32,000 nucleotides of DNA. It comes from Candidatus Heimdallarchaeota archaeon (GTDB taxonomy: Archaea; Asgardarchaeota; Heimdallarchaeia; JABLTI01). The DNA lies in the NCBI GenBank assembly GCA_030614005.1, contig JAUWKS010000002.1:120001-152000 (forward strand), in the 5' to 3' direction. Every line of letters begins with the position of its first letter. The stretch's first letter is position 1. A model generated the notes under the pieces. It was given only the letters and a program-made list of their open reading frames with translations, searched no databases and was not told the origin of the DNA. Position numbers and translations under genes: made by a program. Shown here piece by piece: positions 4,383 to 32,000 of the stretch.

Positions 4383-5957
4383 TTGACAGTACTCAATTGG
4401 CAGAATGATCCAATATACTTTGATGATGTATCTAAAGAAGTCAATCACTGGATAAATGCCAATGAGTTGATGGAAAATAATCGACAAGTGGAGATCTTTC
4501 TTCCAAACACAGAAACACTCAATCTTTTCCCGATCCTAGTACGAAGAGCGGATTTTCTCCGGGTAAACTCTTCCGATCGCATCCTTGCCAGGTTGCCTTT
4601 CATACAGCTTACAGAGAAGGAAAAGGTACTATTCAAAAACCAAGAATTACTCGTATCCGAAAAATTGCGTGATTACTTTTACCAATCTGATAATCGCAAG
4701 ATCCTTGAGTGGCGAGACATCCTTCGGAACTATCTTGAGCGTGGAGCCATTCCTTTACCGTTCTTCCGTTGTTATCCTGATGAGTGGGGGCTCGATTTCC
4801 AAGACCGAATCCTTGAATTCTCTCGAGGGGAAACTTTTGCAATGCCTACTAGGTTAACTACTGAGCTTGCTTATCTTTGTGGCATGGTCAATGGTGATGG
4901 CAATCTCACTAAATATGTTCTCAATATTGTTGATTATTCCATTGAAAACATTCGACAGTTAAAGGAACAGTTCGAACGATTATTCCAACAAACAGGAAGG
5001 ATTCAACTACAAACGGAGAATTGCCCAAAACTCATTATTACTAATCTCTGGGTTGCACGTTTATTTTCCTTTCTTACGGATCAACCAATTGGTGGTAAGA
5101 AGTACAGTAATTTACGTGGACCACTACTCTTTCTAGAGCAACCCTTACGTTCGCACTATTGGTCGGGAGTTATGGATGCGGATGGAAGTTATACTAATAG
5201 AAACATTACATTTACAAGTGCAAGTAAAAATTATACGCAAGATTTTATCTCATTTATGAAATCAATAAGTATTCTAGCAAAACAGTATTCGAGAAATGAT
5301 GGAACGTTTCAAGTATATATTTCAAGAAAATTTCATGATATATACAAGTCACAATTATTATGTTTACACCCTGAAGAGAAATTACAATTTAATAAATTAC
5401 AAAAGGGAATCAGTAAAAACTATGGTGTACGAATCAGAAAAAAATTTGTTGATTTTGATAAAGATAAGATGATAAACGGTTTTTTTGACTTTAGATTCCT
5501 TACACAAGTCCATATTATTGGCTTAGGAGATTTTCTTCGAATCGAAAGAGAAACTAAAACCTTAAAGTCCTTTTCAAAAGAATTAGGAGTGAGTGATAGT
5601 TTTCTCTCAATGCTTGAAAACGAAAGAAGTGCAATACCAATTGAATTATTATTGAAAATCCTTCAAAGAAAAAATAAACAATTAATGCATTTTCTTTTGT
5701 TAAATAAACAACACATTCTCTATAGAAAGGGAAGTTCCAAACCTATTAAATTAAATTTGAAACCTAACAAAGAGCTTCTCTATTTGGCTACAAAAATGAC
5801 TTTCCACAAAGCTTCTATTAGTTTACCTTTAAAAAAGCAAGATTTACAAGATAAAATTACAGACCGTTTTGGAGTTATTATAAAGAAAAATAGAATTGAT
5901 AATAAATTACTTCTCTATTATTTTACTACTTTTTGTAAGCTAAAAAAAATTGATTGA
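4383..5957 (+). CDS. Free-standing double-motif LAGLIDADG endonuclease with unknown N-terminal domain and XRE-type HTH (copy 1)
   Basis: Motifs LAYLCGMVNGDG and YWSGVMDADG, both with the catalytic Asp. HTH LKSFSKELGVSDSFLSMLENERSAIP. No intein splicing residues seen. Confidence 0.85.
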   Translation: MTVLNWQNDPIYFDDVSKEVNHWINANELMENNRQVEIFLPNTETLNLFPILVRRADFLRVNSSDRILARLPFIQLTEKEKVLFKNQELLVSEKLRDYFYQSDNRKILEWRDILRNYLERGAIPLPFFRCYPDEWGLDFQDRILEFSRGETFAMPTRLTTELAYLCGMVNGDGNLTKYVLNIVDYSIENIRQLKEQFERLFQQTGRIQLQTENCPKLIITNLWVARLFSFLTDQPIGGKKYSNLRGPLLFLEQPLRSHYWSGVMDADGSYTNRNITFTSASKNYTQDFISFMKSISILAKQYSRNDGTFQVYISRKFHDIYKSQLLCLHPEEKLQFNKLQKGISKNYGVRIRKKFVDFDKDKMINGFFDFRFLTQVHIIGLGDFLRIERETKTLKSFSKELGVSDSFLSMLENERSAIPIELLLKILQRKNKQLMHFLLLNKQHILYRKGSSKPIKLNLKPNKELLYLATKMTFHKASISLPLKKQDLQDKITDRFGVIIKKNRIDNKLLLYYFTTFCKLKKID

Positions 5958-24693: not shown

Positions 24694-27600
24694 ATGAGTA
24701 AAGCTGTTTCTTCCACAAAAAAACTTCCTCTTTGTCTTTCTATGGGTGTGACAGAGGTGCTAGAAGGAAGGGAGAGCATAACAGGTAAAGACCTTCTAGA
24801 TTATTTTTCTTTACAGGATAAAACATCTTTTCTTACTAACACGAAAAATTTTGTTCTTGTTTGTGGAAATAAACAGAGACCAAATGACTATGAGCCTAAC
24901 AAATTCCTCGGCTCTTTTGGTGTTCGAAGAGCACTAGCAATGAAGAATTACACTCGATTGCCTGTAATTATTGTTACCAATAACCGTTTTGAAACTTCTA
25001 TGCTTATTGAGCAGTTTAATAAACTAACTTCTTGTTTCAAACTATACACATCAAAGAAAAGTCAAAGAGAAAATATTAATGAAGAAATTAAAGCGGACTA
25101 CCCGAATGAAGCAGACTTTATACTGACAACATATAGCTCTTTCTGGGATCAAACAACAAACAAGGATGATCCATCTTCAGAACAAATTATCTTAATCAAT
25201 CCATTAAGACTAAAATATATCATCGAGGATGTAGGCAAATTAGATGTCATTTTTGGCTGTATACATAGGCATAAGCGAATAAGACCGAATTATTCCTTCA
25301 TTCTTGATGAAGCACACTACCCAATTCTATCAAAGAAAGATTATCAATTCTTATTTAAAGCAGGCAATAGTCTTTTCTTTAGATGCAAAGAGAGAATGCT
25401 TTTAGAATATAATAATCCATTCAGAGAAGCTATTTCTCACCTAACTAGTGATCAATTCCAGCTATTTATTTTCACAGATCTTTTTAGGGGAAGAAAACTG
25501 ATAAAAGAACTGGTTAAAGAGTTCAAATCAACTTTTACTTATAAAATGTACCTCTACAGTAATGGTATTTTTCCAACAATTGATGAAAAATTGCCTTCAA
25601 AAGAACTTCTTAAAGAAAAGAATAGGCTTGATAAGAAAGTTTTAAGTGGAATTGTAAAACAAATACATTTATTCACAAAAGGAAGCAACACCAAAACGAT
25701 AACAGGAAAAGTAACTTACAGCGATTTTGATTTTAACGTTGGCCTCAGTAAACAAGAGATATCTCGAACGTATTCCTGGGATAAACCAAAAGAAGCAGCA
25801 AGATTCCTTCCGGTAGTCACTAAGGAAGAAGGAAGATTCAAACTTAGCGCTCTAGGAGAAGAAATATTTGGTGTGTCATCATGGTTTAGTGGTGTTGAGG
25901 ACAATTTTAGCGAACTTTTAGCTCACTTTTCTAGGATCCTTTACAAAAACAAGAAGGAAAACCACAAATTTTCCGTGAAAGAGATAATCATTTTTTATCT
26001 TCAAATGATAGATTGCAATTATGAAACAGTGAAAAGATTTGAGGAGGCAATTCCTGAAAAGTTAGACACAGAAAAAAAGAATGACCAAATGATCGCAATC
26101 CTTGAAAAGAAATTCAAGCCACTAGTTAAAAATTTCAAAAGAGTTTCAGCAAAAAAAATCCTTGGTGCTTTTGAAAAATTAATGAATACTGAAGCATACA
26201 TTTTCTATCAACAATTCAAGAATTATAAGAAAGAAGAGAAACGTTCCTGGGAAGAGAGAAGGAGAAAAGCGGTCCTAAGAAAAGCAAATTATCAGCCCTT
26301 AGCTGTGAAATTCACAGGTGATTATTATCACATGTTTTGGCAAGACGCCAAGAAGTTATTGGAAGAATTAGTTGAAGAAGGGCGACTTGTCAGGATTATT
26401 TCTTACAATGGTAGAGGAAAACCGATACTAAAGTACCTTACTCAAGAATTACTGGATGCGAACCCTCATTTCCAAAAGAATTGCGGGAACTGTCAATGGT
26501 ACAATCAACGCTTCAAAACATGCACCTTTTTACGTTTAAAACAAGCGAAAAACCCGAGTACAATGACAAAAGAAGAATTTGAATATGCTAATGATACACT
26601 AAGATTTGAAGCAACTGCTTGTGAGAAGTACATAGAAAAAGATGATTTTCAGTCGATGGAAGGCAATGTTAAGTTCACTGCTACCGTTGAGAAGTTAACT
26701 AAAGATATGAAGAATATATCAATGAGCTTTTTATCAGGAGATATTGCAGAGTACAAGTATCATTGTCTTTCTTGCCAGGAACAAATAGAAGAATTTGGTA
26801 CAGGTGATAGAATCTTCTTTCCAAGGAGAAGAATTATTTGTCCTAACTGTTCGACAGTTTATCTTCAACTAAAAGATCGGAAAAAAGTAAAAGTGAAAAT
26901 GGAGGAAAGAGATCATCAAAGAAGCTTATACTTCAAAGAAACTGGGACCATTACTGACGTTTTGAGGAAGAAAGATTCTGCTCGTGTTTTTGTCATACAT
27001 GACATAGATAGTGCTAGATTAAGAATCAACGAAGAAAATGATGAGCCACCTTATTTTCTAGTGATAGGTAAAAATGAAATAGCTCTGGATTTGGTGCAGT
27101 TTGTCTATTTTTCAGGTATACGTCATCAAGAATTAGAAGAAACAATGTGGTTACTAGCGGACCTTGATTCTGAAAGATACAAATACAAAATTAAGCGAAC
27201 AGAACAAAAGTCAAAGAAGAAAAAAGCAAAAAGTCGATATAAAAGACCCTTTTCAGCTGAAGACTATTCCAATATCATAAAAATAATCAAAAAAAGCTCC
27301 GATAAAGAAATATTCAACCATCAATTTTTGGAAGCAAGGCTTATCTCAAATATTGCTGGAATGTTATCAATAAAATATGAAATAGAAATGGAAAGCTTCT
27401 CTGACTGGCATTACAATCACCAATTGTTGGAAATGGTTGATTTGCATATGAAAGTAATTGGCGGAGAAGTAAAGTCAAGCTATTATGGAACTCAATTAGA
27501 AGCACTTAGCAACAAGCACTTTTTTGACTTTTTGAAGGGAGAAGCTGCGAGAGTAGGTCTCTGGTCAAAAGGGCGAGTGAATAGCAGGCTAGTGATAGAT

Positions 27601-28872
27601 ATGCTTAAATCCTTCAGCCAAAAGGTTAGTAGTGCTTTTTCACCTTTAGATGCTTTACTGAATCAAATGTTGCGCTCATTCAGAGTAGAATTAGATCCGT
27701 TGTTTCACAGGATGGGCATGGATCCTGCAATGTTAGGTCCAGGTTTGTTTCATAGACGAAAAACAAAATCTGATATTGACCAGCTAGGTTTTTACTTCGA
27801 CTTAATAGAAGCTGTGCGAGTTCTAGTGCTTGTAACTATTGTTAAAGCTATTCGAGATGGCACCCTCGGTTTTGATGATTGTAAATACGTACTAGGTGAG
27901 GATGGACAAGAGATCTATCAAGTGAAAGGTTCTTCCCTGGATAAATTCACCAATCTGGTTTCAGAAGCTCTTGAACAAACCGTTTCACATCAAGGGCAAA
28001 GAATGACTTTTAAACAAGCTTTTGAATTCAATCTTTTGTGCTTAAGAGTTGCTTTTGAAAAATGTCTTTCAGAGATAGAAGAACATAAACAAATTACTTT
28101 GAAAAAAATCAAGAAGTGTTTTGATGATTCACTTTTTATTTCATTTACTTTCTGCCCTGAAGGACTAGAAGAGAAGTTAATAGATTTAAATCGATTTGCA
28201 AGTAAAGAAGGAGTAATTTTCTTTGGAAAAGAACAAGAAGTTTTGGAACGAAAAGAAACAAGAGAAAAATATAGAAAAGAAGTAAAGAGTCATTGGTACA
28301 ACGAAAATGTGATTAAAAAGCTAAATGCTTTTCGGTTGACCAAACATCAAATTAAAGAGCAAGATAGAAGTTTGCTTGTTATTTTGTTGTTATTGTACAA
28401 TACTTTTGAAAGAGATTTTACAATTGATGAATACTCAACTAATCATTTTAAGGAATTACTTGGAATAACTCAAAACCAAGTACAGAGATTACTTGATCAA
28501 ATGGTTTCCAGTGGATTGCTTCTTCGAGAGAAAGTAAATAGAAAGAATTTCTACGAGTTAAATCTTAAAAATCTAAATGTTAAGGACTTTCGTTTTCTTC
28601 TTGGAGTAAATCTCTCTTTAGAGGAACATCTTCAAAGAGAGTTTATCATCAATATTCCTCCTCATTTAGAGCGAGTTGAAAAGATTATTTCTCAAATCAA
28701 ATTGCTTCCTACTAATCAACAAAAAGTCATAAGAAGTAATTTTTGGTTTGATTGGGAACCAACAGAAATTATTCGAAGAGTAATTGTTTGGGCAGAAGAG
28801 AAAGCTGTAACTAGTAAAGCATTTTTCAAAATGATAGGTGATATTCATGGTAAAAAGCAGTTACATTTTTAA
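24694..28872 (+). CDS. cas1: Giant multidomain Cas1-family integrase: degenerate SF2 helicase-like N-terminus, wHTH/Cys clusters, Cas1 domain, C-terminal wHTH
   Basis: LEALSNKHFF, SPLDALLNQML, GMDPAMLGPGLFH and FYFDLIEAVR match the Cas1 core. CGNCQW, CLSC and CPNC parallel the 674-aa Cas1. LTTYSSF and FILDEAH lie in the N-terminus. Confidence 0.82.
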   Translation: MSKAVSSTKKLPLCLSMGVTEVLEGRESITGKDLLDYFSLQDKTSFLTNTKNFVLVCGNKQRPNDYEPNKFLGSFGVRRALAMKNYTRLPVIIVTNNRFETSMLIEQFNKLTSCFKLYTSKKSQRENINEEIKADYPNEADFILTTYSSFWDQTTNKDDPSSEQIILINPLRLKYIIEDVGKLDVIFGCIHRHKRIRPNYSFILDEAHYPILSKKDYQFLFKAGNSLFFRCKERMLLEYNNPFREAISHLTSDQFQLFIFTDLFRGRKLIKELVKEFKSTFTYKMYLYSNGIFPTIDEKLPSKELLKEKNRLDKKVLSGIVKQIHLFTKGSNTKTITGKVTYSDFDFNVGLSKQEISRTYSWDKPKEAARFLPVVTKEEGRFKLSALGEEIFGVSSWFSGVEDNFSELLAHFSRILYKNKKENHKFSVKEIIIFYLQMIDCNYETVKRFEEAIPEKLDTEKKNDQMIAILEKKFKPLVKNFKRVSAKKILGAFEKLMNTEAYIFYQQFKNYKKEEKRSWEERRRKAVLRKANYQPLAVKFTGDYYHMFWQDAKKLLEELVEEGRLVRIISYNGRGKPILKYLTQELLDANPHFQKNCGNCQWYNQRFKTCTFLRLKQAKNPSTMTKEEFEYANDTLRFEATACEKYIEKDDFQSMEGNVKFTATVEKLTKDMKNISMSFLSGDIAEYKYHCLSCQEQIEEFGTGDRIFFPRRRIICPNCSTVYLQLKDRKKVKVKMEERDHQRSLYFKETGTITDVLRKKDSARVFVIHDIDSARLRINEENDEPPYFLVIGKNEIALDLVQFVYFSGIRHQELEETMWLLADLDSERYKYKIKRTEQKSKKKKAKSRYKRPFSAEDYSNIIKIIKKSSDKEIFNHQFLEARLISNIAGMLSIKYEIEMESFSDWHYNHQLLEMVDLHMKVIGGEVKSSYYGTQLEALSNKHFFDFLKGEAARVGLWSKGRVNSRLVIDMLKSFSQKVSSAFSPLDALLNQMLRSFRVELDPLFHRMGMDPAMLGPGLFHRRKTKSDIDQLGFYFDLIEAVRVLVLVTIVKAIRDGTLGFDDCKYVLGEDGQEIYQVKGSSLDKFTNLVSEALEQTVSHQGQRMTFKQAFEFNLLCLRVAFEKCLSEIEEHKQITLKKIKKCFDDSLFISFTFCPEGLEEKLIDLNRFASKEGVIFFGKEQEVLERKETREKYRKEVKSHWYNENVIKKLNAFRLTKHQIKEQDRSLLVILLLLYNTFERDFTIDEYSTNHFKELLGITQNQVQRLLDQMVSSGLLLREKVNRKNFYELNLKNLNVKDFRFLLGVNLSLEEHLQREFIINIPPHLERVEKIISQIKLLPTNQQKVIRSNFWFDWEPTEIIRRVIVWAEEKAVTSKAFFKMIGDIHGKKQLHF

Positions 28873-31800
28873 CAAGAAAGAAATCTTCCCGATTAATCCT
28901 GGTAAACCCCGAAAATGGATCACTATTCATAACCTTCCTGCTACTGAACCAAGGAAAATAACTGGTCTCACATGGCAAGAAGTACTACCTGGTTATGCTC
29001 AAGCTTTAGCAGAAGTGATCGAAGAAATAACTGGTAGTAAGAACCCCTATGAGCACCAAGAACAAGCAATAAAGCATTTATTGAATAATTCTGCTAATAA
29101 GAAATGCCTGGACCTCATAATTAAAGGTGGAACTTATTCAGGAAAATCACTATCTTTCATCGTTCCTGGTATCATCAAGCAAATAAATGAGGAAACGGAT
29201 TTTACAGTCATTTTTTACCCTTCGAAACAATTACTCCTAGACCAATTTGAAAGAGTGAAAGAGTATTTGGTGAAATTCGAGGAAAAAACAGGCATCAGAT
29301 TAATTTGTGAAAAGTACAGTGGAGATACTGGAAATACTAATTACTCTAAAGGGGTAGCTCGTGTAAATGATCAAGAGCTGAATAATTTAGAACAGAACCC
29401 GCCGAATGTCTTGCTTGCCACTTTTGACAAATTTTGGCATCATTATGAGAGTGGGAACAGCAGTCCGTTAATAAAGAAAATAGCATCTGCAAATTATCTT
29501 GTTTTTGATGAGATACATGCATTTGACGGTTACGCTGCAGGTAACATTAAGGGCTTTATTGCTATTCACAAGAAAGCTAATCCTCAGGGGCAATTTATAC
29601 TTTCCTCTGCTACTATAGCTAATGTTGAAGGATTCAGAGACGATTTCTTGCCTAATGCTAAAATAATTACTTGCCCACCAGTGAGAGGAGAACAAGTGTA
29701 TGTTGGCACAACAATTGAACACACAGTTTCACTGCTTGCAGATTTCTGGAAAGAAATGGAAAAAATGCCAGGAAAAACCGGTCTTGTTTTCCTTGATTCG
29801 AAAGAAAACATCGAATTATTAACAGACCTACTCTGTAGGAAACTCAAGCAGGATGACCCTTTCTTTGATCCTGACACTGTGCAGATGATCCACGCAGATT
29901 TGGAATATTATCATCGTAAAAGAGTGCAAGATGAGCTTCGAAAAGGAAATAGAAATATTATTAGAATTCTCATCTCTTCCTCAGTCTTGGAGCTTGGTGT
30001 AAATATCCCTAACATTCAAACAGTATTTAATATTGGCATTCCGATAACACAGAAAGATGGTATTATTCAAAGGATGGCTCGCAATCGCTCTGTTCCCGGT
30101 GAAAGAAGAACGAATGTTTTTCTGTTCGACCTTTCTAAGAAACGTGACAGTTTTTACTGGAACAATAAGGAAATCCTCAAGGACATTCTTGAAACGAATG
30201 CTTGTAACCCTATTCTTTATCCCAAACTTAACCCGAAGATATTGGCGGGGCAAATTATCTTGCACCTTAGATACGGTATTAATGACTTTGGAGAGATAAT
30301 GCAATTCTTCCTTGATCAAGGACCACAAGTTTATCGCTTAGCAAGACAACAATACACTAAACTTGTTAGTTTAAATGTCCTGAAAAAAAGCAGCGATGGT
30401 AAAGTTCTCTTCACAAGCCAAGGAGAAAAAAAGCTAAAAGTGCAAGCAAAAAAGAAAAATCATCTTGTTCCGTTCTCCATACGAGCTATTAAAAATAATT
30501 GGTCTATTAAGAAAAAATTTGGAGAAAGTTCTTACTGGCATGAAAATAGAAAATCTAGTCTTGGTAAGATCTCTACCAAGGATGTTTTAAAGAAAGGATT
30601 GCCTGACAATATTATTACTCGTAACAAAAAACAGTATCTTGTTACGGATAAAGATCAGCAATTAAGAACTATTTACGTTAAAGAATTACTTTCTAAAGAA
30701 AAAAGTGCTGGAAATTTTTCCGGAATAACTAATCGTTTACTTGACCCTCAGATAACTCCTGGTGTTTTCTCTAAGAAAGTTAAAGGAACAAAAATAGTTG
30801 ACATTAGTTTTGGTCAAGTTTCAATTAAGCAACAACCTTTAGCTATTGTTAACTCTAATCCCGAAAAAATTAGTTCTAATAATACTCATGTAAAGGATAA
30901 CAAGAACTTTTTTTGGCAAGAATTAACCCCAAAACGCTCGGAAGAATTGGCTAATACTGAAAAGTCAGATGGATTAGCCATTACATTAACTTCTGATATT
31001 CCAAAACCAAAAGAACTTACAACTAAGAAATTACTAGAATATTTTGGGCGCGTCCTACAAGTTGAGATTGAAACCGTTCTTTCAATTCCAGGTAGTGAAT
31101 TCGCACTTGCGATTAATACTAATCAATTAGCAATTTATGATAAAGGAGACCCAAATGGAAACTCAGAGTATTTGTTTAGTCATTTACAAAAAGTCGCTGC
31201 TCGAACGCTCAAAAGATTGACAGATTGTTCTTGTGAAAATGGTTGCAAAAATTGTTATGGTGAAATTCTTGGCTTATTTCCTAAAGGAGTAAAAGAATCA
31301 CTAAAAATACTTTTCAAGGATTTAACGCTGATTTCTGAAGTGGAGTTTGATGATGAATTGTTGCATGAAATCAATCCTGAGCAAATGAATTTCAAAGAAA
31401 ACAGAATTATTGCTTTTTCAGATATTCATCTTACAAACAAGCTTTGTTTCCAGGAAGAATTTTTCGAAGCGCTCAAAGAGCAGAGTAAACAAGCTGATAT
31501 TATCATCATCAATGGTGATTTATTAGATACTATTTCAGAAGATAGTTATCAGGCTTTTAGTGAATTCAAAAGCATGGCTATACGTGAAGGTTTTTGGTCG
31601 AAACTAGTTCTGATACGCAGTTCTTCTATTCATGACGGCAATCTTGAGCAATTCACAGGTTTCCTCCATCAAGATTATGTTGAAGTTGAGATCGGTTCTG
31701 AACAAGTATTATTCGTCCACGGAAATAGGATCGGCATAAATCCTAGTTTAGTAGATAAAACAAGTATAGGAAAAGCTGTCTTTGAAGCAAAAAAGGCTTT

Positions 31801-32000
31801 AATAAAGCCGGGCAAGATTTGGCTTCCTGTTATTCTCCCTGAAACTCATCTTGTTATTGGCCATGTTCATCTCCGATTTTATAATGAACGCTTTCGAGTT
31901 TATGGTTCTGGTCACTGGACAAAAAAAGGTGACCCTTACAATCAACGATGCATGATAATTCTTGACCCTAATTCTTTAGATGTGCCAAAAATCGTTTCAT
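28847..32000 (+). CDS. DEAD/DEAH helicase with DUF1998 (YprA/Hrq1-like) fused to a calcineurin-like metallophosphoesterase; 3'-truncated by the window and absent from the ORF track
   Basis: ATG 28847 after a GGTGA SD, overlapping the cas1 end. Checked in one frame: PYEHQ, GGTYSGKS, VFDEIH (29507), SSAT, CSCENGCKNC (31226), FSDIH (31421), NGD, VHGN, GHVH (31862). No stop seen in the segments I translated; at least 1051 aa. Confidence 0.88.
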   Translation, partial: MVKSSYIFNKKEIFPINPGKPRKWITIHNLPATEPRKITGLTWQEVLPGYAQALAEVIEEITGSKNPYEHQEQAIKHLLNNSANKKCLDLIIKGGTYSGKSLSFIVPGIIKQINEETDFTVIFYPSKQLLLDQFERVKEYLVKFEEKTGIRLICEKYSGDTGNTNYSKGVARVNDQELNNLEQNPPNVLLATFDKFWHHYESGNSSPLIKKIASANYLVFDEIHAFDGYAAGNIKGFIAIHKKANPQGQFILSSATIANVEGFRDDFLPNAKIITCPPVRGEQVYVGTTIEHTVSLLADFWKEMEKMPGKTGLVFLDSKENIELLTDLLCRKLKQDDPFFDPDTVQMIHADLEYYHRKRVQDELRKGNRNIIRILISSSVLELGVNIPNIQTVFNIGIPITQKDGIIQRMARNRSVPGERRTNVFLFDLSKKRDSFYWNNKEILKDILETNACNPILYPKLNPKILAGQIILHLRYGINDFGEIMQFFLDQGPQVYRLARQQYTKLVSLNVLKKSSDGKVLFTSQGEKKLKVQAKKKNHLVPFSIRAIKNNWSIKKKFGESSYWHENRKSSLGKISTKDVLKKGLPDNIITRNKKQYLVTDKDQQLRTIYVKELLSKEKSAGNFSGITNRLLDPQITPGVFSKKVKGTKIVDISFGQVSIKQQPLAIVNSNPEKISSNNTHVKDNKNFFWQELTPKRSEELANTEKSDGLAITLTSDIPKPKELTTKKLLEYFGRVLQVEIETVLSIPGSEFALAINTNQLAIYDKGDPNGNSEYLFSHLQKVAARTLKRLTDCSCENGCKNCYGEILGLFPKGVKESLKILFKDLTLISEVEFDDELLHEINPEQMNFKENRIIAFSDIHLTNKLCFQEEFFEALKEQSKQADIIIINGDLLDTISEDSYQAFSEFKSMAIREGFWSKLVLIRSSSIHDGNLEQFTGFLHQDYVEVEIGSEQVLFVHGNRIGINPSLVDKTSIGKAVFEAKKALIKPGKIWLPVILPETHLVIGHVHLRFYNERFRVYGSGHWTKKGDPYNQRCMIILDPNSLDVPKIVS

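Follow-up and report, generated by a model that had tools for sequence, protein, structure and literature searches.

The DNA analysed here, hereafter the window, is a 32,000-nt stretch from a Candidatus Heimdallarchaeota archaeon, corresponding to C9:120001-152000 in a 3.6-Mb genome of 126 contigs. Its right-hand part is occupied by an element of 11,141 bp, extending from 20915 to 32055 and bounded by perfect 18-bp terminal inverted repeats (TIRs). Exactly four genes lie between the TIRs, in the order TnpB (minus strand), a LAGLIDADG-HTH protein, a fusion protein comprising a very divergent Cas1 (aCas1), and a helicase fused to an MZB zinc-binding domain and a metallophosphoesterase (MPE) domain (Table 1). 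We focused on this last gene, hereafter the helicase-MPE, and on its association with aCas1. The element exhibits the features of aCas1-TnpB elements, namely a divergent Cas1 fold with its catalytic residues, a TnpB in the locus and flanking repeats. No CRISPR array is present in the window, and the Pfam scans of the window open reading frames (ORFs) of at least 100 aa gave no match to a Cas2 family, shorter ORFs and the rest of the genome not having been searched. The context of the helicase-MPE is a TIR-bounded transposon-like element and not a CRISPR adaptation module.

The helicase-MPE frame is free of stops over 1051 codons from the ATG at 28847 to the end of the window, with a GTG at 28838 as an alternative start. 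An initial annotation of this DNA, made from the sequence of the window, had described a helicase-phosphoesterase fusion coupled to Cas1 and had suggested extending the contig. In the contig, the gene closes at 32014, which is 14 nt past the window and still in one frame. The fusion is thus borne out as a single uninterrupted ORF of 1055 aa, without internal stop and with four Pfam domains. The 26-nt overlap with the upstream gene (28847-28872, the TAA of the latter being at 28870-28872) and the separate Shine-Dalgarno sequence, both pointed out in the same annotation, are present as well, the AGGTGAT motif lying 4 nt ahead of the ATG; the gene is in this way translationally coupled to the aCas1 gene.

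Each of the helicase, CxCxxGCxxC and MPE motifs named in the initial annotation could be located in the 1055-aa protein. The RecA1 domain corresponds to Pfam DEAD (aa 69-260, E 7e-17) and the RecA2 domain to Helicase_C (aa 302-412, E 2e-12), with the motifs GGTYSGKS (Walker A, 94-101), DEIH (221-224), SAT (254-256) and QRMARNRS (408-415). The MZB/DUF1998 domain is found at aa 756-803 (Pfam, 29 bits against a cut-off of 24.2) and contains the zinc cluster CxCxxGCxxC at aa 794-803. The region in between, aa 441-750, has no match in the Pfam scan. We collected 27 full-length homologues with 51-72% identity, nearly all labelled as Heimdallarchaeota metagenome-assembled genomes (MAGs). The four cysteines are invariant in 27/27 of them, and the helicase, zinc and MPE motifs are invariant or nearly so, which indicates that the ATPase/helicase motifs and the zinc cluster are intact. 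The PDB sequence matches of the helicase are weak: YprA/MrfA (6znp, 5e-6) and a 2108-aa DEAD/DEAH helicase (9tu7, 1e-6). The look-alike clusters found in the Atlas all comprise DEAD, Helicase_C and MZB. Judged by its SF2 core, its four-cysteine MZB cluster and its grouping in sequence searches, the helicase is a member of the YprA/MrfA (DUF1998) family.

The MPE domain is only barely recognised by Pfam (Metallophos, aa 853-995, 21.7 bits against a cut-off of 21.5). The AlphaFold (AF2) model of the last 216 residues exhibits an MPE fold with a pLDDT of 90.8, and it matches 171 PDB chains at E ≤ 1e-3 in Foldseek. The MPE motifs are D859-x-H861, G890-D891, SSSIHD (925-930), H958-G959 and GHVH (1005-1008). 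Across 34 relatives, fused and split, no variation is seen at D859, H861, G890, D891, H929, H958, G959, H1006 and H1008. The domain thus keeps the motif III histidine and all but one of the seven canonical metal ligands. The modelled fold and the motifs other than motif III place the domain in the calcineurin-like metallophosphoesterase superfamily. The best structural match is LpxH (VIA Z 16.9, root-mean-square deviation 2.8 over 170 residues), followed by YfcE (15.4), the PolD DP1 exonuclease (14.7) and Mre11 (13.3), with SbcD likewise in the group having Z values of 13-15. At the place where LpxH has extra residues, the model has a helical insertion (about aa 959-986). An assignment of the domain to a nuclease or a non-nuclease subfamily by fold was considered and set aside, as the Z-scores are too close. 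As for Mre11/SbcD, the MPE is only about 210 aa long and without capping domain, no Rad50/SbcC-like gene is found in the element by Pfam, and the likeness to Mre11 (Z 13) is at the superfamily level only.

A peculiarity of the MPE is its motif III. Instead of GNH[DE], in which the asparagine is a metal ligand, the clade of the window protein exhibits SS[ST][IH]HD, which arises from a two-residue insertion and has lost the asparagine while keeping the histidine and the aspartate. The replacement of GNHD by SSIHD, already noticed in the initial annotation, is therefore real. On the helicase tree, GN-HD is found in distant lineages, including a second fusion described below, GGM[GK]HE is found in the C110/C88 type, and SS[ST][IH]HD is shared by the fused clade and the split form that is its sister, all three variants being fixed within their clades. 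The dN/dS ratio in the MPE is 0.11-0.19 between the window copy and two relatives. Because the variants are fixed by clade and the dN/dS is low, SSSIHD is best described as a clade-conserved remodelling of motif III under purifying selection and not as decay.

With regard to the upstream gene, the Cas1 of the 1392-aa protein escapes the family models: there is no match in Pfam or NCBIfam, PF01867 run against the whole genome gives a best score of 9.3 bits on a different contig, and a profile of ten relatives of the upstream gene gives 0 matches against the PDB sequences. A profile built from aa 761-1240 and nine relatives matched 76 proteins in a library of 1.8 billion representatives. Pfam Cas_Cas1 is found in the corresponding region of 4 of the 10 matches tested, 3 of them above the cut-off. 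The AF2 model of the same region, made from 42 sequences, reaches a pLDDT of 86 and has 54 Foldseek matches at E ≤ 1e-3. Among the matches listed are Cas1 and casposase entries (7kft, 1.8e-9; casposase 6opm, 3.4e-9; Cas1 4n06) and one untitled Aquifex protein. The 42 sequences show little or no variation at E936, N990, H1020 and D1036, and E1039 is conserved in the close set as well; their contexts, QLEA, PLDALLN, GLFH and FDLIE, are what we take to be Cas1-like. As the fold search and the transitive profile search agree, though the family models are silent, we consider the domain, as modelled, to be a genuine and very divergent Cas1 homologue, and the coupling to Cas1 put forward in the initial annotation stands, with the Cas1 inside a 1392-aa fusion. 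This fusion has zinc-ribbon motifs on the N-terminal side of the Cas1 domain and a winged-helix region on the C-terminal side (weak winged-helix matches at 1244-1313). We also considered whether its N-terminal half might be a dead helicase, for which the hidden Markov model (HMM) of the element helicase gave no signal (E 0.8) and the Atlas search no usable match.

The flanks of the related loci were searched with HMMs for aCas1, helicase and MPE, and only loci with enough flanking DNA were counted. The helicase clade with its MPE, either fused or as the gene downstream, lies beside an Asgard-type Cas1 in 31/31 of these loci. The initial annotation had proposed such a survey of cas1 linkage, on the view that a fusion common in settings unlinked to cas1 would speak against the coupling; no such pattern emerged. 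Among the fused loci with upstream DNA, the aCas1 fusion gene is immediately upstream in 16/16; four of these loci belong to the own genome, five come from further genomes of the genus and seven lie on metagenome or MAG contigs. Another 14 loci are of a split type, with a helicase of about 775-815 aa, a downstream MPE gene of about 210 aa and an adjacent aCas1. These show three gene arrangements and belong to at least three Asgard families; their aCas1 is either stand-alone (500-540 aa) or a fusion (850-1477 aa), and in one genome (G121) it is located downstream instead. The own genome contains four fused copies (about 59% identity) and two split copies, in which a helicase-MZB gene (771/818 aa) is followed by an overlapping MPE gene (211/213 aa). 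The cases that depart from the aCas1 linkage are internal-deletion derivatives, fragments and a single MPE standing alone in a distant genome (L096).

When the whole protein was used as a query against 399 Asgard genomes, the full-length fusion was found to be confined to the genus of the window, the matches outside the genus being only ordinary YprA-type helicases (DEAD, Helicase_C and MZB). An MPE-only profile matched in 22 of the 399 genomes. A second helicase-MZB-MPE fusion, of 994/995 aa, occurs in another Asgard family (L100, G061:C40:1039-4020; L101, G057:C21:9149-12133, minus strand). It exhibits the canonical GNHD, and in L101, the sole contig long enough, a 1002-aa aCas1 ORF is located 3.8 kb away on the other strand.

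The TnpB is less constant. Its orientation and subgroup vary between copies, and none is found within 6.6 kb of the copy on contig C110. Because this copy has no TnpB within that distance, we take TnpB to be dispensable and conclude from gene content that the conserved partner of the helicase-MPE is Cas1 and not TnpB. A comparison of C110:28000-45000 (L011) with G081:C11 (L093) shows host flanks that are 82-86% identical around a split-type element without TnpB that is 64-72% identical, and the homology shifts exactly at the MPE stop. This may reflect either different element variants at one site or an element that evolves far more quickly than the DNA around it. At C110:51226-51711 (L102, 9224-9733), 6.6 kb upstream of the C110 head gene, there is an MPE fragment (170 aa, GGMGHE type), which may be a remnant of a tandem or earlier insertion. 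In most of the loci that extend far enough upstream, the LAGLIDADG-HTH gene comes before the Cas1 gene, and it also heads split-type elements in other genomes.

In the helicase tree, which was obtained by a quick search and contains long branches, the MPE-linked helicases are split from the cellular Asgard and bacterial YprA helicases with an SH-aLRT of 100. The fused clade of the genus (support 100) falls within split forms, with a G084 split pair as its sister; the fused form of the other family branches with distant split forms. Given this nesting and the separate position of the second fusion, the helicase and the MPE were probably fused twice independently. For 20 loci, which include paralogous copies within single genomes, the matrices of pairwise identity for aCas1, helicase and MPE are correlated with r = 0.95-0.97 (Mantel test, 0 of 2000), which indicates that the three are inherited as one unit. 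Comparison of the window copy with two relatives gives dN/dS values of 0.08-0.22 in each of the four segments (helicase core, middle region, MZB and MPE); by this measure, all parts of the protein are under purifying selection.

The genome contains about 25 copies of the 18-mer of the TIR, most of them less than 300 nt from the end of a contig, for instance on C1, C26, C30, C50, C66, C76 and C85. Two pairs of TIRs lie about 290 bp apart and resemble miniature inverted-repeat transposable elements (MITEs). These MITE-like units of about 290 bp (e.g. C5:17-303 and C124:15-309) contain the TnpB-proximal, omegaRNA-like end. Many TIR copies share common outer flanks, CGTTCCTTTTTT on one side and TTTCATGACAGC on the other, the first being exact and the second similar in the C9 element; these flanks may be either a sequence-specific target or an indication that the true element ends are further out. 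The sister genome G081 holds, on its contig C17, a copy of the whole element that is 84% identical, has the same TIR and lies at a different place on the contig. The helicase-MPE orthologue of this copy (L043) contains one in-frame TAG at codon 441, between the helicase core and the middle region, which points to a recent pseudogene, to a gene that has been split or to an error in sequencing. At the insertion site of the own genome, the G081 counterpart holds an uninterrupted gene of 283 aa. Comparison of the two genomes indicates that the site is unoccupied in G081, without being a clean empty site.

At least two internal-deletion derivatives (G081:C6, with TIR, and G083:C174) keep the MPE end and look like non-autonomous copies. 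In these derivatives (L048/L077 in G081:C6 and L050/L084 in G083:C174) and in L079/L103, the N-terminus of the LAGLIDADG protein (aa 1-259 or 1-215) is joined to the C-terminus of the helicase, the MZB and the MPE, and the right TIR lies 28-38 nt after the stop where examined. At locus L079, only the MPE end is visible, adjoining the TIR.

Table 1 Features of the element and of its surroundings. Positions are those of the window unless a contig is named.
Feature	Position	Strand	Evidence or remark
Helicase-MZB-MPE gene	28847-32000 (true stop 32014)	+	Open frame, Pfam domains, homologues
Shine-Dalgarno-like AGGTGAT	28836-28842	+	Within the 3' end of the upstream gene
SF2 helicase core (RecA1 aa 69-260, RecA2 aa 302-412)	29051-30082	+	Pfam, motifs, conservation
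MZB/DUF1998 zinc-binding domain (C794, C796, C800, C803)	31112-31255	+	Pfam MZB
Calcineurin-like MPE domain (aa 847-1055)	31385-32000	+	Pfam, AF2 model, fold matches
aCas1 fusion gene, 1392 aa	24694-28872	+	Profile search, AF2 fold
Cas1 domain of the aCas1 fusion (aa 761-1240)	26974-28413	+	Foldseek, transitive profile
LAGLIDADG_3 + HTH_3 protein, 542 aa, cassette head gene	22745-24373	+	Pfam
TnpB, 546 aa, left end of the element	20933-22573	-	Pfam OrfB_IS605 and Cas12f1-like_TNB; PADLOC Cas12f 1e-25
Left 18-bp TIR, TATGGACAAATAGGACAT	20915-20932	+	Also bounds the G081:C17 copy
Right 18-bp TIR	32038-32055, just past the window	-	Perfect reverse complement of the left TIR; 24 nt after the helicase stop
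Host gene parts flanking the element	20533-20914 and C9:152056-152270		Comparison with G081
Operon 1, second aCas1 cassette	9954-14196		Pfam/PADLOC

Based on these observations, we propose, with about even confidence, that the helicase-MPE is a 3'-5' helicase-nuclease which processes DNA for a Cas1-type transposase, the MPE occupying the nuclease slot of YprA helicases. In favour of this function, the helicase-MPE is the terminal gene of the element, its stop being 24 nt from the right TIR; it overlaps the aCas1 gene; and it belongs to the constant core of this type of element, as the linkage in every counted locus indicates. The phylogeny, the co-divergence with aCas1, the purifying selection, the signs of mobility and the copy without TnpB, all described above, count in its favour as well. 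Cas1 enzymes only join free 3'-OH ends to a target, and these ends are made by other enzymes. As Cas1 needs such ends and Pfam detects no polymerase domain in the four element ORFs, with Cas2 likewise unmatched among the window ORFs of at least 100 aa, the helicase-MPE is the best candidate for end processing. The helicase would load on a 3' single-stranded tail or a nick and unwind the DNA, as MrfA does, while the strand so displaced would be cut or trimmed by the MPE, which sits at the C-terminus or in the downstream gene, where YprA helicases have their nuclease. In this way, the protein could free or trim the element ends for aCas1, through excision and preparation of 3'-OH ends; alternatively, it could clear flaps in integration intermediates. 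Such a role would parallel that of Cas4, DnaQ or Cas2/3 working with Cas1 in CRISPR adaptation. The broader proposal is that this YprA-type clade, so far found only in Asgard archaea and mainly in the Heimdall group, is the obligate partner of a Cas1-family transposase, with a remodelled MPE in the nuclease slot, and serves a polymerase-free, casposon-like excision or end processing; we hold this proposal tentatively, at slightly below even confidence.

Several observations weigh against a function in Cas1-driven transposition. Such movement is itself only a candidate, as its signs are indirect: the unoccupied site in G081, the multi-copy TIR and the deletion derivatives. The host gene at the own-genome junction is without 97 codons, corresponding to residues 66-162 of the intact G081 orthologue, and neither a clean target-site duplication nor an exact empty site is seen when the own-genome site is compared with that of G081. 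A search for TIRs around the C63 copy and the C110-type elements gave no clear TIRs. The asparagine of motif III, a metal ligand, is absent in this clade, so that the activity of the MPE may be altered. The nearest MPE structures are those of the pyrophosphatase LpxH and of YfcE, and their lead over the PolD DP1 exonuclease and Mre11 is just some 2-4 Z units. Lastly, the clades of the 2025 YprA survey are defence systems apart from 'YprA-only' and MrfAB, which sets a strong prior for defence (bioRxiv 10.1101/2025.09.15.676423).

This prior leads to the possibility that the LAGLIDADG-HTH protein, aCas1 and the helicase-MPE constitute an array-less, CRISPR-derived immunity module riding on a TnpB/TIR element, in which the helicase-MPE would degrade invading or replicating DNA, like DruE in Druantia III. 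The YprA clades described so far are mostly defence systems with a C-terminal or downstream nuclease (bioRxiv 10.1101/2025.09.15.676423), and the best PADLOC matches of the helicase are the defence helicases SngC (1.7e-16), DruE (2e-11) and BrxHI (1e-10). Nevertheless, these matches span the generic helicase core only, and the nine window ORFs scanned with PADLOC, all four element genes included, gave no match to any further component of Shango, Druantia, DISARM or BREX; the other element genes matched only Cas12f/TnpB, HTH or weak winged-helix models. Defence-type genes abound in the window, which encodes a RAMP protein and a NERD-NACHT protein, and several divergent copies per genome would fit defence islands. 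In contrast, the TIRs enclose exactly these four genes, the TIR family has MITE-like members and end-keeping deletion derivatives, and the element holds no other candidate transposase, TnpB not being one. The helicase-MPE is moreover a constant core gene, while cargo usually varies. We regard a defence module, which is the main genuine alternative to our proposal, as somewhat unlikely. A Cas3-like effector, as suggested in the initial annotation, here with TnpB or another RNA-guided protein recruiting the helicase-MPE to shred target DNA, is most improbable. An SF2 helicase combined with a metal-dependent hydrolase does resemble the domain logic of Cas3, a TnpB is in the same element, and there are weak matches to Cas3 helicase models (E 1e-8 to 1e-5), but the similarity is that of SF2 helicases in general, as TIGR01587 scores 24.8 bits, far under its cut-off of 102 bits, and there is no HD domain, no Cascade gene and no CRISPR array in the window. 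The gene also tracks Cas1 and not TnpB: the junction between aCas1 and the helicase is constant while TnpB flips or changes subgroup, and the pair also occurs without TnpB (C110).

Two further possibilities concern the biochemical step rather than the setting. The helicase-MPE could help with repair or replication after integration, by removing displaced strands or flaps or by restarting synthesis over the gaps left by Cas1 integration, in a manner similar to MrfAB. MrfA and MrfB are an excision-repair pair (PMC7797055), and the MPE is nearly as similar to the proofreading exonuclease DP1 of PolD as to its best match (Z 14.7 against 16.9). However, transposition gaps are normally filled by host repair. 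As the sequence gives no means of separating such a role from end processing, it is a variant of our proposal more than a true alternative, and as a separate function it seems unlikely. It is also conceivable that the MPE is not a nuclease at all but a phosphatase or phosphodiesterase with a role in small-molecule or end chemistry, removing 3'-phosphate or 2',3'-cyclic phosphate or hydrolysing a nucleotide signal. The closest folds, LpxH, YfcE and the cyclic-nucleotide phosphodiesterase Rv0805, would agree with this, as would the small size of the domain (about 210 aa) and the presence in the model of a helical insertion but no Mre11-type cap. On the other hand, the domain sits in the nuclease slot of a DNA helicase family, has probably been fused to the helicase twice, and differs little in Z from nuclease-type MPEs, so that we consider a non-nuclease function quite unlikely.

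The helicase-MPE element is not the only Cas1 cassette of the window. The Cas1 of operon 1 (10702-12726, 674 aa) has an N-terminal winged-helix/zinc region, matches the PADLOC Cas1 model with an E of 5e-4, and aligns with the same catalytic residues as the aCas1 of the element, which are intact. It is followed by a 241-aa unknown protein and by a 252-aa PD-(D/E)XK protein with the 1+3 cysteines of the Cas4 type (C24 ... CxxCx5C). By gene content, operon 1 and the element thus appear to pair Cas1 with alternative nucleases, the MPE being a predicted one. The initial annotation had assigned to the helicase-MPE the processing role that Cas4 plays in operon 1; this comparison is reasonable, while the setting has proved to be transposon-like, with no CRISPR array in the window. 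Three paralogues, all LAGLIDADG_3 + HTH_3 proteins with lengths of 523-542 aa, are encoded at 4383-5957, 7789-9360 and 22745-24373, and each heads a different cassette (RAMP-type, operon 1 and the element, respectively). Between both Cas1 cassettes, at 14528-19771, lies the gene of a 1747-aa NERD + NACHT protein, a defence-type STAND NTPase.

Cas1 integrases are thought to stem from transposons (casposons). To our knowledge, biochemical work on Cas1 transposons has so far dealt only with elements that encode a polymerase of their own, and the Asgard Cas1 elements have so far only been predicted. The present analysis names a constant partner for the Asgard Cas1, a helicase with a phosphoesterase and not TnpB, and provides a concrete set with which the transposition chemistry could be reconstituted: the LAGLIDADG-HTH protein, aCas1, the helicase-MPE and defined 18-bp ends. 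The family is narrow, yet it could serve as a defined system for Cas1-driven, polymerase-free transposition. If the MPE is indeed a nuclease, metallophosphoesterases would be added to the nuclease types recruited by YprA-family helicases, and if the proposed function is correct, the element would be a natural precedent outside CRISPR for the coupling of Cas1 with a helicase-nuclease seen in Cas1-Cas2/3. The motif III variants GNHD, GGMxHE and SSxIHD form a natural series for the tolerance of MPEs to the loss of the asparagine ligand.

The type of element is already predicted in the literature. Loci with aCas1, TnpB and flanking repeats were predicted to be a new transposon family with Cas1 as transposase, and the Asgard groups were named Cas1H-Asgard-1 and -2 (Altae-Tran et al. 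2023, PMC10691335, citing Makarova et al. 2020); aCas1-TnpB elements are also summarised in PMC8730458. The window element resembles these loci by its divergent Asgard Cas1, its TnpB and its flanking repeats, here 18-bp TIRs, and differs in that the constant partner of Cas1 in the present loci is the helicase-MPE and not TnpB. The text of PMC10691335, in which the word helicase occurs twice and never with regard to aCas1, does not mention a helicase or MPE partner of aCas1; Makarova et al. 2020 may contain a prior description.

Within the YprA family, MrfA of Bacillus subtilis is a DNA-specific 3'-to-5' helicase that unwinds from a 3' tail and is the partner of the exonuclease MrfB (PMC7797055). 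MrfA/YprA with MrfB (6znp) and the helicase-MPE have in common an SF2 DExH helicase, a C-terminal four-cysteine MZB and an adjacent metal-dependent nuclease, predicted in our case. In contrast to MrfA/MrfB, the sequence similarity being weak (E 5e-6), the helicase-MPE has a fused MPE in place of a DnaQ-like exonuclease and is part of a Cas1 element in place of chromosomal repair. YprA helicases carry a nuclease at their C-terminus or in the next gene, of the PLD, PD-(D/E)XK/Vsr, RNase H-like, EEP or DnaQ-like type (bioRxiv 10.1101/2025.09.15.676423). The helicase-MPE follows this rule, as do the defence helicases of DISARM (DrmAB), Druantia (DruE), Dpd, ARMADA, BRIGADE and TALON, whereas the MPE type is not among their nucleases and none of their partner genes is matched in the element. 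The text of that survey contains no metallophosphoesterase partner and no Asgard or transposon clade, these words being absent and 'Cas1' matching only Cas11. In the PADLOC scan, none of the partner genes of Shango (SngAB), Druantia (DruA-D or DruH), DISARM (DrmB/C/methylase) or BREX (BrxA-L) was found beside the helicase.

Casposons, which are self-synthesising elements with Cas1 and PolB, often carry additional nucleases and helicases (PMC9939771). They share with the window element a Cas1-fold integrase in a TIR-bounded element, and the casposase 6opm is among the best matches of the upstream gene. In contrast, the window element has no family B polymerase by Pfam and shows no long target-site duplication, and its Cas1 is fused to about 760 extra N-terminal residues. 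The CRISPR adaptation modules in which Cas1 works with Cas2/3, Cas4 or Cas2-DnaQ differ from the window element, which has no array in the window, no Cas2 among the ORFs of at least 100 aa, and unrelated helicase and nuclease folds; the two are alike in that an integrase is coupled to a helicase and/or nuclease, which in the window element would likewise prepare 3'-OH ends. As far as we have seen, the linkage count over 31 loci, the two probable fusions, the motif III series and the co-divergence test are new.

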